The position numbers and the translations under genes were made by a program. From Bacillota bacterium (GTDB taxonomy: Bacteria; Bacillota; Clostridia; Peptostreptococcales; Anaerovoracaceae), in assembly GCA_017543805.1 (NCBI GenBank), contig JAFYFK010000204.1:1-26009 (forward strand): DNA of 26,009 nt, in the 5' to 3' direction. The stretch's first letter is position 1. Every line of letters starts with the position of its first letter. This document shows, piece after piece, positions 18-10,272 of this stretch. The notes under the pieces are model-generated. The model was not told the DNA's origin and did not search any database. It was given only the letters and a program-made list of their open reading frames with translations.

Positions 18-1292
18 GTGGGAGATCTGACAGGCTCCATCAACTATTCGATCAGCGTCGCCGCCCTGACCCTGATGGTCATGAGCGTCATCATAACCAA
101 CGTAAGCACCAGCCTCGAGAAAAGCACAAGGCGGTTTTTCTATACGTTTTTCCTTACGATGCTGCTGTACGTGATCTCCAATCTGCTTTCGCAGTTTGCG
201 GAGAACATGGGGACGCCGGCCTTTACGCAGATAGCGATCTTTTCGGAGTCGCTCTTCTCGTCGCTGCTGATGCCGATGCTGACGCTGTTCATACTTGACT
301 GCACCGGAGAAAAATGGCGCGAATCCATGCTGTTTTTCGTGACCTGCGGCATATGGCTGATATATATACTGATACTGCTGATGACGCAGATCACCACATT
401 CATCTATTACATCAGCCCGGACAATGTTTATCACCGCGGCCCGCTGTACCCTGTCCTGCTTGTTCCTCCCGTACTGATAATGGGAGCGAACCTCATCGGG
501 GTCATTCTGAGGCGCAAAATGCTTTCGCAGAAGCAGTTCCTGTCGATCATCACGTTTATAATGCTGCCGATGTTCGCGATGATAATCCAGATGATCTTCT
601 TCGGGCTGTATCTGATAGTTTTCGCTACCGCTGTTTCAGGCATACTCCTCCTGCTGTTTATACTTACGGATCAGATGGAGAACTACGCCAAGCAGCAGAA
701 AGAGATCGCCCAGCAGAGGGCAAGCATCATGGTGCTCCAGATGAGGCCGCACTTCATCTACAATACCATGATGAGCATCTACTATCTTGTGCAGCAGGAT
801 TCCGAGCGCGCCCAGAAAGTCATTCTGGACTTTACAAGCTACCTGAGAAAGAACTTTACCGCCATCGCAAAGGAAGACACGATCCCGTTTACCGAAGAGC
901 TGGAACATACAAGAGCTTACCTTGCTGTCGAACAGGTCCGTTTCGAGGACAAGCTGTTTGTCGAATACGTCACGCCGGAAACGGACTTCAGGCTGCCTCC
1001 GCTCACGCTTCAGCCGATAGTTGAGAACGCGGTAAAGCACGGTATCGACCCGGAGCTTGGATCCCTGTATATCTCGATCTACACGGAAAAAACGCCTTCG
1101 GGCATCAACATAAGCGTCGAGGATTCGGGGCCGGGCTTTGAGGCCTCCGACAACAACGAACCGCATGTCGCCCTGGCGAATATACGGGAAAGATTAAAGA
1201 TAATGTGCGACGGAGAGTTGGAGATCAAATCGCGCAAATCCGGCGGGACCGCTGTCACGATAAAGATCCCGTACCCCAAAGAATCTAAATAA
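18..1292 (+). CDS. LytS/YehU-type sensor histidine kinase with ~7-TM N-terminal domain
   Basis: 424 aa; SD GGAGGTG at 4-10; ~7 hydrophobic segments; H-box LQMRPHFIYNTM, LTLQPIVENAVKHG N-box, EDSGPG G1 box. Confidence 0.9.
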   Translation: MGDLTGSINYSISVAALTLMVMSVIITNVSTSLEKSTRRFFYTFFLTMLLYVISNLLSQFAENMGTPAFTQIAIFSESLFSSLLMPMLTLFILDCTGEKWRESMLFFVTCGIWLIYILILLMTQITTFIYYISPDNVYHRGPLYPVLLVPPVLIMGANLIGVILRRKMLSQKQFLSIITFIMLPMFAMIIQMIFFGLYLIVFATAVSGILLLLFILTDQMENYAKQQKEIAQQRASIMVLQMRPHFIYNTMMSIYYLVQQDSERAQKVILDFTSYLRKNFTAIAKEDTIPFTEELEHTRAYLAVEQVRFEDKLFVEYVTPETDFRLPPLTLQPIVENAVKHGIDPELGSLYISIYTEKTPSGINISVEDSGPGFEASDNNEPHVALANIRERLKIMCDGELEIKSRKSGGTAVTIKIPYPKESK

Positions 1293-2898
1293 CACTGTTT
1301 TCCGCAAGGTGAATGCCGTCCGCGGCGGCTGACATGATGCCGCCCGCGTAGCCCGCGCCCTCACCGCCCGGATAAAGACCTTTAATGACGGAGCCGTCGC
1401 AAAGCACGGCTTCGCCTTTTTCATTTCTGACAAAGCGCAGCGGGGATGAGCTTCTGGATTCTATGGCGGTCATTACAGCCGAGGGATCGGCAAAACCGCG
1501 CAGCTTTCTGTCCAGCATGGGAAGCGCTTCTTCTATGGAGTCCGAGACAAAGTCCGGAAGGCATTTGCGGATATCCGTAAACCTGACGCCTGGGCGGTAT
1601 GTGGGAACAGGTCCTGCTGCAGATGCTTCGCTGTCAGCGGTATGGCCGAGGAAGCTGCCCACAGTCTGGGCGGGCGCTGTATAAGTTCCTCCGCCGAGCT
1701 CAAAGGCCAGCTTTTCGTATTTTTCCTGAAAATCGAGGCCGGCGAGAGGATCTTCCGACCCGAAATCCGAAGTGCGCACGTCGACAAGAAGAGCGCTGTT
1801 GGCGTTTTCGCCGGAGCGGTCCGAATTGCTCATGCCGTTCGTAACGAGCAGTCCTGGATGCGAAGCGGACGCGACGACCTGCCCTCCGGGGCACATGCAG
1901 AAGGTATAAACGCCTCTTCCCGCGCCTGTTTTTACGTTGAGCTTATATTCTGCCGCAGGCAGGCCGAGCGCCCCGTGTTCGGCCGAAAATTGGGCTCTGT
2001 CGACGAGTTTCTGCGTATGCTCCACCCTGACCCCCATGGAAAACGGTTTCTGCTCCGCCAGCAGGCCTTTTTCCGAGAAATATCTGACGGTATCCCTTGC
2101 GCTGTGGCCGGTCCCGAAAACGAGAACGTCGCATTCTATGCGTTCTCCGCTGCCGGTCACGGCGGCTTTAAGCTGACCGTTTTCTGTCTCTATCGCGCTG
2201 AGCATGGTGCCGAAACGGACTTCCCCGCCGAGGGACTCTATCTTTCTCCGTATATTGACGACCACATTCCGCAGAACGTCTGTGCCTATATGGGGCTTCT
2301 GCCTGTACAGTATGGCCGGATCCGCACCGGCCTCGACCAGCGTTTCAAGGATAAAGCGCTGTGCCGGATCCCTTGTCCCGGTAGTAAGCTTGCCGTCGGA
2401 AAACGTGCCTGCCCCGCCCTCGCCGAACTGCACGTTGGCCTCCGGGTCGAGCTCGCCTGTGCTCCAGAAATGTTCGACCGCCTTTACGCGGTCTTCCATG
2501 GCAGGTCCGCGTTCCAGAACTATAGGCTTTAGGCCGTAAAGAGCAAAAGTAAGAGCGGCAAACATGCCGCAGGGACCAAATCCGCAGACCACCGGCCTGT
2601 GTTTGGGAATGTGTTTTGCCTCTGGAAAGTGATAATGCAGGTCGTCAGGAGCTTTCACGGCTTTTACGCCGGCCTTTTTAGCTGCAGAGAGCAGTTTTTC
2701 ATCAGAAATCTTATCCGAAGCAATATCCAGACTGTAGACCCTGTAGATGACAGGCTTTTCCCTCGCGTCAACGGATTCCTTAACTATCCGCATATCAGAA
2801 ATGCTGCCGGAAGCAAGCCTGAGTTTCTTCTCAGCCTTCGCCTTCAGCAGCTCTTCAGATTCGCCTGTCTTCAGTTTTATTTCATGTACGCGGATCAT
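1285..2898 (-). CDS. FAD-dependent oxidoreductase (uncharacterised flavoprotein family)
   Basis: 537 aa; dinucleotide-binding VVCGFGPCGMFAA, conserved QFGEGGAGTFSDGKL, FCMCPGG, C-terminal GEGAGYAGGIMSAA. Confidence 0.85.
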   Translation of the reverse strand: MIRVHEIKLKTGESEELLKAKAEKKLRLASGSISDMRIVKESVDAREKPVIYRVYSLDIASDKISDEKLLSAAKKAGVKAVKAPDDLHYHFPEAKHIPKHRPVVCGFGPCGMFAALTFALYGLKPIVLERGPAMEDRVKAVEHFWSTGELDPEANVQFGEGGAGTFSDGKLTTGTRDPAQRFILETLVEAGADPAILYRQKPHIGTDVLRNVVVNIRRKIESLGGEVRFGTMLSAIETENGQLKAAVTGSGERIECDVLVFGTGHSARDTVRYFSEKGLLAEQKPFSMGVRVEHTQKLVDRAQFSAEHGALGLPAAEYKLNVKTGAGRGVYTFCMCPGGQVVASASHPGLLVTNGMSNSDRSGENANSALLVDVRTSDFGSEDPLAGLDFQEKYEKLAFELGGGTYTAPAQTVGSFLGHTADSEASAAGPVPTYRPGVRFTDIRKCLPDFVSDSIEEALPMLDRKLRGFADPSAVMTAIESRSSSPLRFVRNEKGEAVLCDGSVIKGLYPGGEGAGYAGGIMSAAADGIHLAENSVI

Positions 2899-2932
2899 TG
2901 TGAATAATGACTGTTTGTTTAAGTAAGTTCAT

Positions 2933-3134
2933 TGACAGCGGGCAGCTCTGACGCGTCCCATGACAGAACCGTGATGTTTCCGGCAGATGAGTGTAGGCGC
3001 GCAGGCGCCGTCGATTTCGAAGGGGAAGGACGGCCCCGTAAGGCCCGGCCGTTCTGAGCCCGAAATCCACACGAAAGATGCCGTTGAAACATCCGGTGAA
3101 GGAATCAGGACGCGGAACGGGCTGCCCGCTGTCA
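2933..3134 (+). ncRNA. Candidate ~200-nt structured RNA (rod-like fold); family not identified
   Basis: Perfect 14-bp terminal stem TGACAGCGGGCAGC/GCTGCCCGCTGTCA plus nested helices (2952-58/3108-14, 2973-80/3086-93, 2981-85/3079-83, 2991-94/3069-72, 3013-19/3061-67, 3028-35/3047-54); CC-GTAA-GG tetraloop; trailing GCTTTTATTT. Confidence 0.5.
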
Positions 3135-3173
3135 GCTTTTATTTGATGCAATCAAACGATCGCTGTTTTAGCT

Positions 3174-4472
3174 TTATATCTTTTCCCCTGCCAGAAGACC
3201 GCTGGCAAAGGCGAATGCCAGATTGTATCCACCGCAGACCGCGTCAGCGTCGAGGACCTCCCCGCAGAAAGCAAGGCCCGGCACGAGCCGCGACTGCAGC
3301 GTTTCCGGATCCACCTCAGAAAGCGCGACGCCTCCGGAAGTCACCTGAGCGTCGTTCCAGGAACGGGTCCCGTCTATACTGAAAACGAGGTCTCTGCACT
3401 TTGCTGCAAGAGCCTCCGGACTGCCGTCAAAACCTTCGAGCAGCCAACTGCAGAGCTTGTCCGGAAGAAGTCCGAAGAGCACGCCGGAAAGCGTTCCGAA
3501 TTCCTTAAAGCGCGCGGAAAACAGATCTTTAAGCGCTTCTTCGGAATATTCCTCAAATAGGTCCACATGAGCCTCATATTCGCAGCCGGGGACGCGCCTC
3601 AGAAATCTGCTCACATTAAATGTGCATATCCCCGACAGCGTCTCCTTTGTAAACTGGAGCTCGCCGGAATCCTCAGCAAGAGCACGCAGCGTTCTCTCCT
3701 CATACGTTTTCGGCGCCTGCATTTTTATCTTTTCCGGAGCTGCGTAGGGCGTGAAATCGTCCGGGACGCGGTAAGTCTGAACAGACTGCTCATAAAGACC
3801 GATGCGTGCCTTTGCGCGGACTCCTGCCAGAGCGGAGATATCCTCCCTGACCGTGAGCTGCGTAAGCGCTGGGATCGGCTTAATGACAGTATGCCCGAAC
3901 GCCTTGGCAAAGCGGTATCCGTCACCGAAACAGCCGTACTGCATTCCGGCTTTTCCGCCTGTCGCGATAATAAGCTTTCCGCATTCGATTATCTGTGATG
4001 TATCGGAATGAATAACAAAACCGCTGTCCGTCCTGTTGCAAACAGAAGCCGAAAAACCGGTTATGATCTTTACGCCGGCTTCCTCCGCGGCGCGGATGAG
4101 CGCGGCAGAGATGCTTTTTGCCTGGAATGACCTGGGATACAGGCGGCCTTCGTCCTCTTCCGCGGGAATGATACCGAGTTTTTCGAAAAAGTTCAGAAGA
4201 TCCCCGACCGGATGAGCGTTAAAAACAGCCGAAAGAACAGCCGAGGCTGCTTCCGGCCCGGAATTTGAGTAATAAGTATCCGCGGACGCGTTTCTGTTGA
4301 GATAATTGCATCGCCCGTTGCCTGTGGCGTTGATCTTGCGCCCCGCTGACAGATTCCTGTCCAGCAGCGCAACAGATGCCCCGGGATGGGCTCCTGCAGC
4401 GGCGATAGACGCGGCAAGCCCCGACGCTCCGCCTCCGATTATGGCGATATCATAATATCCGAGTTTTGACAT
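3174..4472 (-). CDS. HI0933/YhiN-family NAD(P)/FAD-dependent flavoprotein
   Basis: 432 aa; IAIIGGGASGL Rossmann motif, GRKINATGNGRCN signature, AQVTSGGV, GGYNL; SD GGAGG. Confidence 0.9.
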   Translation of the reverse strand: MSKLGYYDIAIIGGGASGLAASIAAAGAHPGASVALLDRNLSAGRKINATGNGRCNYLNRNASADTYYSNSGPEAASAVLSAVFNAHPVGDLLNFFEKLGIIPAEEDEGRLYPRSFQAKSISAALIRAAEEAGVKIITGFSASVCNRTDSGFVIHSDTSQIIECGKLIIATGGKAGMQYGCFGDGYRFAKAFGHTVIKPIPALTQLTVREDISALAGVRAKARIGLYEQSVQTYRVPDDFTPYAAPEKIKMQAPKTYEERTLRALAEDSGELQFTKETLSGICTFNVSRFLRRVPGCEYEAHVDLFEEYSEEALKDLFSARFKEFGTLSGVLFGLLPDKLCSWLLEGFDGSPEALAAKCRDLVFSIDGTRSWNDAQVTSGGVALSEVDPETLQSRLVPGLAFCGEVLDADAVCGGYNLAFAFASGLLAGEKI

Positions 4473-9493: not shown

Positions 9494-10169
9494 CGTAGCC
9501 GTACTCTCCTCCCACCGAATCGCGGACTATGTGCCCGTGGTCTATCGCGACGACGCGCTTGCCCATGCGGTTTACTATGTCCTTGGCGTGCGTTACCATA
9601 ACGACCGTAGTTCCGCGCCTGTTTATGATGTCGATAAGCTGCATTATCTCCCATGCGGTGTCCGGGTCGAGGTTTCCTGTCGGCTCGTCCGCTATGAGCA
9701 TCTTGGGGTTGTTGATTATAGCCCTCGCTATAGCCACGCGCTGCTGTTCGCCCGCGGAAAGATGGTCCGGGAACTCGTCCGCCTTGTCCTCTATGCCCAT
9801 TACGGAGAGGATCTGCGGCACCTGCCTCTTTATGGTGCGCTGCGTGGCGTGGATGACTTCCATTGCCAGCGCGACGTTTTCGAATACTGTCTTGTGCGGA
9901 AGCAGGCGGAAGTCCTGGAATACCATGCCGATGTCGCGGCGGAGTTTAGGTATCTGCCGGTTGGAGAACCTGGTGATGTCCTGCCCGTCCACTAGTATGC
10001 GGCCGCTGTCCGCGTTGATCTCGCGGAGTATCAGCTTTATGAAGGTCGACTTGCCCGCGCCTGACGGACCGACCAGGAAAACGAAGTCTCCGTCTTCGAT
10101 CAGTATGTTTGCCTCGTGCAGCGCGTCTGTTTCGCCGAACGATTTTGTTACGTTTTCAAATTCTATCAA
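9486..10169 (-). CDS. ftsE: Cell division ATP-binding protein FtsE
   Basis: Walker A GPSGAGKST, VFQDFRLL, LSAGEQQRVAIARA, ADEPTGNLDP; TTG start behind GGAG SD. Confidence 0.95.
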   Translation of the reverse strand: MIEFENVTKSFGETDALHEANILIEDGDFVFLVGPSGAGKSTFIKLILREINADSGRILVDGQDITRFSNRQIPKLRRDIGMVFQDFRLLPHKTVFENVALAMEVIHATQRTIKRQVPQILSVMGIEDKADEFPDHLSAGEQQRVAIARAIINNPKMLIADEPTGNLDPDTAWEIMQLIDIINRRGTTVVMVTHAKDIVNRMGKRVVAIDHGHIVRDSVGGEYGYDD

Positions 10170-10212
10170 GTGAGCACTCCAAATAACGCTATTTTGTAAT
10201 TTGCCACGTTAG

Positions 10213-10241
10213 ATAATACTATATATATGGATTTTTGTTAA
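10213..10241 (-). promoter_or_regulatory. Sigma-A-type promoter of the ftsEX operon
   Basis: Minus strand TTAACA (10241-10236), 17 bp spacer, TATTAT (10218-10213). Confidence 0.6.
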
Positions 10242-10272
10242 TACGGCTATGGCTTTTTTAATAAAAATTTAA

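Follow-up and report, generated by a model that had tools for sequence, protein, structure and literature searches.

Two flavoprotein genes in the window (the whole stretch of DNA analyzed, 26,009 nucleotides) are separated by a 202-nt sequence that folds end to end into a rod, raising the question of whether it is an RNA gene lying antisense to the operon or a sequence of another kind that has entered the spacer. The evidence set out below makes an independent regulatory RNA gene improbable. On balance, the element is better regarded as belonging to a small family of palindromic intergenic repeats, non-coding, restricted to one lineage and probably mobile, that would form a very stable hairpin in read-through mRNA.

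Folded as RNA, the + strand of positions 2933–3134 has an MFE of −114.6 kcal/mol (z −8.14, with none of 200 dinucleotide shuffles as good) and the − strand one of −102.4 kcal/mol (z −7.24 against dinucleotide shuffles); single-stranded DNA folding gives −60.9 and −57.6 kcal/mol, nearly equal for the two strands. The end-to-end rod described in the initial annotation is thus borne out, its shape is kept across the copies described below, and the helices, side hairpin and loops listed there were each found at their positions in the sequence and dot-bracket (Table 1). The center consists of a predicted three-way junction and a 5 × 6 internal loop. The side hairpin of the junction is unmatched on the opposite arm, which makes the element something other than a simple palindrome.

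Table 1. Predicted parts of the window copy and the two genes that flank it (window positions).
Feature	Position	Strand	Basis or variation among copies
FAD-dependent protein, downstream operon gene	1285..2898	−	Pfam PF21688, 3.1e-73
Outer (closing) stem P1, 14 bp, perfect	2933-2946 with 3121-3134	+	Predicted fold; unrelated but equally complementary sequence in other copies
Conserved core TGACGCG ... GGAACGG, 172 nt	2949..3120	+	78-87% identical to the C202, C277 and L008 copies
Basal helix, 7 bp	2952-2958 with 3108-3114	+	Two pairs change on both sides: G-C to A-U; U-A to C-G or G-C
Long helix, 13 bp with UU bulge	2973-2985 with 3079-3083 and 3086-3093	+	100% of cells paired; one G-C to A-U double change
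Purine-rich internal loop, k-turn-like	GAUGA 2986-2990 opposite GAAAGA 3073-3078	+	GAUGA identical in 4/4 copies
Helix GUGU/ACAC	2991-2994 with 3069-3072	+	Dot-bracket
Side hairpin GGCGC-loop-GCGCC of three-way junction	2996-3009	+	Stem identical in four copies; loop GCAG, GCAA, GAA or GUUA
Junction helix GAUUUCG/CGAAAUC	3013-3019 with 3061-3067	+	One A-U to G-C double change
Variable apical hairpin	3020..3058	+	Unrelated 7-bp hairpin with 9-nt loop instead in C277; 12-21% identity to C277
Apex CC-GUAA-GG (GNRA)	3036-3043	+	Dot-bracket
T-rich tail GCTTTTATTT	3135-3144	+	Window copy only; terminator-like scan match only here
HI0933-like flavoprotein, upstream operon gene	3174..4472	−	Pfam PF03486, 1.4e-64

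The purine-rich loop had been described as fitting the kink-turn consensus. The motif CGGCA-GAU-GA / GA-UGCCG is present and is identical in all four copies; as in the kink-turns bound by L7Ae/YbxF-type proteins, a helix is followed by a 3-nt bulge (GAU) and then by GA facing GA beside a helix. The GAU-GA bulge and the facing GA are present, but the opposite strand carries six unpaired nucleotides (GAAAGA) and not GA alone, such that four extra nucleotides (GAAA) lie between the G·A pairs and the next helix. The consensus is fitted on the bulged strand only, and the match is thus not canonical. The motif never varies among the copies. A search of the 79%-complete genome found no L7Ae-family gene (PF01248).

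The element matches no Rfam family, and the initial annotation had likewise assigned it to none: a cmscan search of all 4227 Rfam families with permissive filters on both strands produced only chance-level matches. The best match in Rfam 15, to DUF3800-III, scored 18.3 bits against a threshold of 43.8 and covered only the right arm, with broken pairs; the other copies and the comparison loci gave no match at the gathering score. The likeness to 6S RNA (RF00013) suggested from the size and rod shape did not hold, there being no 6S match at E values of up to 10 in the cmscan search. A hammerhead-like reading of CAGAUGAG ... CGAAA was also rejected: the essential U of CUGAUGA is replaced by A and no ribozyme model scores.

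The copy-number search found a multi-copy element with unrelated flanks and not a single-copy RNA gene. Three copies are present in the genome assembly itself (1.76 Mb in 306 contigs, 79% complete), at C147:2933–3134 (+), which is the window copy, C202:~10068–10254 (−) and C277:~3036–3218 (−). A fourth lies at positions 48–233 of L008 (JAEEGH010178243.1), the sole contig matched in a gapped pattern scan of metagenome contigs; the remainder of this contig is 94.5% identical to contig C114 of the same genome. Covariance model R1 gives 192–216 bits on each of the four copies. An nhmmer search of the whole genome identified no diverged or truncated extra copies, the weak matches near contig ends being noise.

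Beyond these four copies, BLAST found no homologs in 60 relatives, model R1 matched nothing in 150 family genomes (121 genera) or 150 order genomes, and a 29-mer with up to three mismatches allowed had no match in 400 family genomes, so that about 550 other genomes of the family and order were without a homolog. Species-representative genomes gave no match in two pattern scans, exact or gapped, nor did viral contigs in one pattern scan or phage and plasmid records in a blastn search. The genomes searched are samples and many are incomplete; as far as they go, the repeat family appears to be confined to one species-level lineage.

Homology among the copies starts at TGAC (window position 2949) and stops at ...GG (window position 3120), and the sequences beyond are unrelated. 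So are the neighbors: two flavoproteins in the window and, elsewhere, a DUF4153 protein and a small ORF, an ABC substrate-binding protein and a membrane protein, and a TRAP transporter. The flanks of each copy are nevertheless complementary to one another: in the window copy they pair over 14 bp, a length that can be extended to 17, in C202 over 13 bp that include a mismatch and a G·U, in C277 over 16 bp and in L008 over 6–7 bp. The C202 and L008 cores are 92% identical, whereas their closing stems are unrelated. The innermost ∼6 bp of the closing stem (GCWGCY / RGCWGC) may be homologous between copies, and the inherited unit is perhaps the 172-nt core plus these ∼6 bp. The sequence GCWGCC beside the core is a weak candidate for a target motif. 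In the four copies the outer stems differ in sequence and no conserved terminal inverted repeats were found; neither was a target-site duplication, as direct repeats are lacking both beyond the stem and where the core ends. The MITE-like alternative offered in the initial annotation is closer than an RNA gene, even though the conserved terminal inverted repeats and target duplication of a classical MITE are absent. The TG...CA ends then taken as a feature of the element fail to generalize: these ends, the T-run and the GNRA apex are each confined to the window copy or to three of the four copies. In L003:1317–1388 (−), equivalent to C277, the ABC substrate-binding protein gene is adjoined by a 23-codon Gly/Tyr/Cys-rich ORF, MRYYVGGYFGYYYGTVDRCCTSRK, which is preceded by AAGGAG and a TTGACA-17-TAAAAT promoter-like site.

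The four copies were aligned to model R1, a procedure that leans towards the model's own structure; in this alignment standard pairs make up 97.3% of pair cells and 18 of the 64 pairs show double-sided changes. None of 500 column shuffles reached any of five measures, and sliding the partners by 1–3 columns lowered pairing to 33–41%. A MAFFT alignment of three copies gave 21 pairs with changes on both sides. The paired changes that had been named as a check on the fold are therefore present across the copies, although the conservation of the fold, as judged from four related sequences, falls short of statistical proof and would be compatible with RNA and single-stranded DNA alike. Pairwise identity is 88–98% in the central domain (the long helix, the GA-rich loop and the three-way junction with its side hairpin), 67–81% in the basal domain and about chance level in the closing stem, with the apex diverging as given in Table 1. 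The retention of both the fold and the central sequence suggests selection on the fold and on the exact central sequence. Coding potential of the short ORFs across the element was considered and rejected, since apex length and sequence differ between copies and the ORFs cannot be conserved. A heptad-repeat build of the arms was likewise rejected, the arms being unique sequence and not tandem 7-mers.

The same operon in related genomes indicates how the element came to its position. The gene for the FAD-dependent protein was found in 16 of 20 relatives and, among 11 loci fetched, seven have the HI0933-like gene directly upstream on the same strand. The spacers between the two genes in these seven relatives are 0, 0, 3, 28, 34, 49 and 55 nt and contain no large hairpin, compared with 275 nt in the window, 202 of them belonging to the element, which identifies the element as an insertion. 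The 34 nt left upstream of the FAD-dependent start codon (window 2899–2932) show no Shine–Dalgarno sequence; the relatives' FAD-dependent gene has GGAG-type sites or overlapping stop and start codons.

One comparison of a filled with an empty site is available. The left flank of the element in L008 (positions 1–55) corresponds to C107:9816–9870 of the genome itself as far as GCTGCC, after which C107 continues without the element and without a hairpin. Following the element, L008 has 22 nt that loosely resemble the C107 continuation and then C114-like sequence. The left arm of the L008 closing stem was thus ordinary flanking DNA and the right arm was absent beforehand, as far as can be judged from a single comparison made imperfect by the rearrangement 22 nt downstream of the element. 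L008 joins sequences that lie on the separate contigs C107 and C114 of the genome, with the hairpin element at the junction; this could reflect a genuine rearrangement or, alternatively, an assembly join mediated by a repeat. A further hint is given by an exact 20-mer, ATCTGTAAATATTGTAAAAT, which belongs to the right flank of C277, where it reaches into the stem arm, and recurs alone at C6:923–942, suggesting that one stem arm is original and the other a copy. The two intergenic regions that share this 20-mer, which contains a TGTAAA direct repeat, are unrelated; the 20-mer could represent an operator or a promoter segment. From the unrelated flanks and this one imperfect filled/empty comparison, across only four copies, we infer that the element has moved.

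As to the orientation in which the element might act, the + strand appears to be the one that matters, being the more RNA-like: its unpaired bases are 64–73% purine and ∼40% A in the four copies, its tetraloops are GUAA and GCAA or GCAG (GNRA-type), and its MFE lies below that of the − strand by 12.4, 0.4, 5.9 and 12.9 kcal/mol. The G·U wobbles also cited as a mark of this strand do not distinguish it, the consensus pairs of the four copies having three G·U cells versus four A·C cells. In the window copy, this strand is antisense to the operon. At both C147 and C202 the element occupies nearly the whole spacer between two same-strand genes, with the + form antisense to both, and at C277 it is situated between two divergent promoters. 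The minus form is in the sense of the next gene in three of the four copies, 22–118 nt upstream of its start.

The most serious rival to a mobile repeat is that the copies encode a family of trans-acting small RNAs, three or four paralogs read from the + strand, in which the stem need only pair while a protein or a target would be bound by the conserved junction and the GA loop (possibly a k-turn). In favor of such RNAs, the structure is conserved with many double changes, and the central domain is more nearly identical than pairing requires; the purine- and A-rich unpaired bases and GUAA/GCAA loops on the + strand, its lower MFE in three of the four copies, the weak promoter-like hexamers 5′ of the + form at C202 and C277 and the T-run after the window copy all point the same way. 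However, a scan of the flanks of the four copies found no promoter or terminator common to them. At C202 and C277 the promoter-like sites just 5′ of the + form match nine of 12 positions, no better than the scan yields by chance, the window copy and L008 have nothing above the shuffle background, and the T-run follows one copy of four. The flanks are not homologous, unlike the outcome of gene duplication, and two copies have just 22–35 nt to the next start codon on the opposite strand (34 nt at C147 and 22 nt at C202). A small-RNA family would also have no Rfam family, no homolog outside the lineage in the sampled genomes and no L7Ae-family gene to go with it. We consider this explanation unlikely. 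The dedicated 6S-like or antisense RNA gene of the initial annotation is likewise disfavored by the multiple copies, their unrelated flanks, the lack of a common promoter or terminator in the flanks and the insertion into a tight operon spacer.

Less probable still is that the hosts have selected the element as a cis-acting RNA on the minus strand of mRNAs, for instance as an RNase III site or a stabilizer, and have kept it for its effect on the neighboring genes and not for its own propagation. The orientation and distance of the minus form relative to the next gene in three of the four copies are those expected, the C147 copy lies inside an operon, and the minus strand folds far better than its shuffles (z −7.2). 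Against this, the neighboring genes have nothing in common, the C277 element lies upstream of both divergent promoters, the minus-strand loops are pyrimidine-rich with a weaker fold in three of the four copies, and the same operon is without the element in all relatives examined. Finally, it is improbable that a mobile element specifically targets the loop of a hairpin already in place, for instance a terminator, the closing stem being the old hairpin as for IS1397 in REP loops: removal of the core does leave a plausible 10–14-bp hairpin with a 4–5-nt loop at three copies, and a T-run follows the stem of the window copy, but the sole available empty site (C107 versus L008) has no hairpin, the same-operon spacers of seven relatives have no comparable one, and the T-run is on a strand without a gene to terminate and is missing from the other copies.

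Taking the element as a member of a mobile repeat family, we propose that the core moves in the form of DNA and is assisted by an enzyme, encoded at another place, that would recognize the folded single strand and not terminal repeats. Such recognition would explain the missing terminal inverted repeats, the missing target duplication and the conserved center. The closing stem would be made or lengthened from local sequence after insertion, whether through template switching when the large hairpin folds back or because closure is selected for. REPINs are hairpin repeats with compensatory changes that are known as mobile DNA (PMC3116915), and template switching at imperfect inverted repeats homogenizes their arms and makes them perfect (PMC7202029, PMC8604942). 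The perfect or near-perfect stems, the C277 20-mer at C6 and the L008/C107 comparison are indirect hints that template switching may be the source of the closing stems. The window element is most likely transcribed within the minus-strand operon mRNA, where a rod of about −100 kcal/mol could serve between the two genes as a site of processing, a barrier to decay or a partial terminator, like REP, ERIC and Correia elements. Searches of the 79%-complete genome found no Y1_Tnp (PF01797) gene and no other transposase candidate, nor any parent element in it with sequence in common with the repeat. It also counts against the repeat reading that the + strand carries GNRA-type tetraloops and conserved, asymmetric loops rich in purines, which look more like functional RNA than junk DNA.

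A more novel outcome can be envisaged, although it seems to us a doubtful one: that the three-way-junction core is a new structured mobile nucleic acid (RNA or single-stranded DNA) that, with every move, gains a closing stem copied from its new surroundings, or that it represents a new class of plus-strand small RNA with a k-turn-like protein-binding site. If the former were true, bacterial repeats would have, in target-templated hairpin closure, a way of inserting or maturing that has not been described for them, and a second family of the same build in this genome would be a further example of the same process.

This second hairpin repeat, unrelated to the first, is represented for example by C107:9697–9815 (C107:9679–9826 corresponds to L009:2680–2827). 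It has 19 matches in the genome itself, five in one other genus and nine partial matches in another, and gives no Rfam match at the gathering score. Its conserved core of ∼95–120 nt is closed by a near-perfect stem of 14–22 bp, which varies by paired changes from copy to copy and from one subfamily to another. The two families are therefore alike in having a conserved structured core and a variable, compensated closing stem, but they share no sequence similarity, and the second is far more numerous and extends to at least two further genera. Related copies of the second family have related closing stems, so that there the stem is clearly inherited. One copy of this family is bracketed by a 109-nt inverted duplication (C107:9560–9668 and 9878–9986, 94.5% identical), which takes in the 3′ end of a gene and whose second arm coincides exactly with the end of the contig.

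The value of these observations lies in repeat biology, and they do not amount to a new regulatory RNA class of broad reach. Two unrelated hairpin repeat families in one Clostridia genome keep their centers while their closing stems vary, the reverse of what is seen in MITEs and REPINs, which points to a mechanism of spreading or maintenance that recognizes the folded middle. Such repeats mimic structured RNA genes in sequence-only scans. The window copy also provides a natural example of a hairpin of ∼−100 kcal/mol in an operon spacer, before a gene without a visible ribosome-binding site.

Among known systems, 6S RNA resembles the element in its length of about 200 nt and its end-to-end rod-like fold, but the element lacks the large central bubble, occurs in several copies at no constant genomic position and is missing from the relatives searched. 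A closer comparison is with ERIC/IRU, Correia (CREE/NEMIS), RUP, BOX and bcr1-type MITEs, which are imperfect palindromes of 100–200 bp scattered between genes. Repeats of the ERIC/Correia type are often co-transcribed, their RNA hairpins altering mRNA processing or stability, and in these families the terminal inverted repeats are conserved and usually accompanied by a short duplication of the target, TA or another. The element shares with them the form of an imperfect palindrome between genes, and it shows the classical MITE traits of dispersed copies (three plus one, in unrelated contexts) and of filled and empty sites (one comparison, with a rearrangement nearby); unlike them, it has neither terminal inverted repeats nor a target duplication and is found in one lineage in very few copies. 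ERIC and NEMIS have been named as MITEs (PMC3116915).

The REPINs, which are hairpin-forming REP doublets moved by RAYT transposases (Bertels and Rainey 2011, PMC3116915), are similar in being intergenic and non-coding, in forming one long imperfect hairpin with compensatory changes, and in lacking classical terminal inverted repeats or target duplications; their spread is thought to proceed via a folded single strand. In REPINs, however, the ends (REP 16-mers) are invariant and the middle is variable, whereas here the middle is 88–98% identical and the ends are unrelated. REPINs also occur in tens to hundreds of copies beside a RAYT gene, compared with three to four copies here and no Y1 transposase gene found in the 79%-complete genome. 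The element is thus best filed as an unusual variant of the bacterial palindromic intergenic repeats, belonging to an undescribed and very narrow family, and not as a new regulatory RNA gene.
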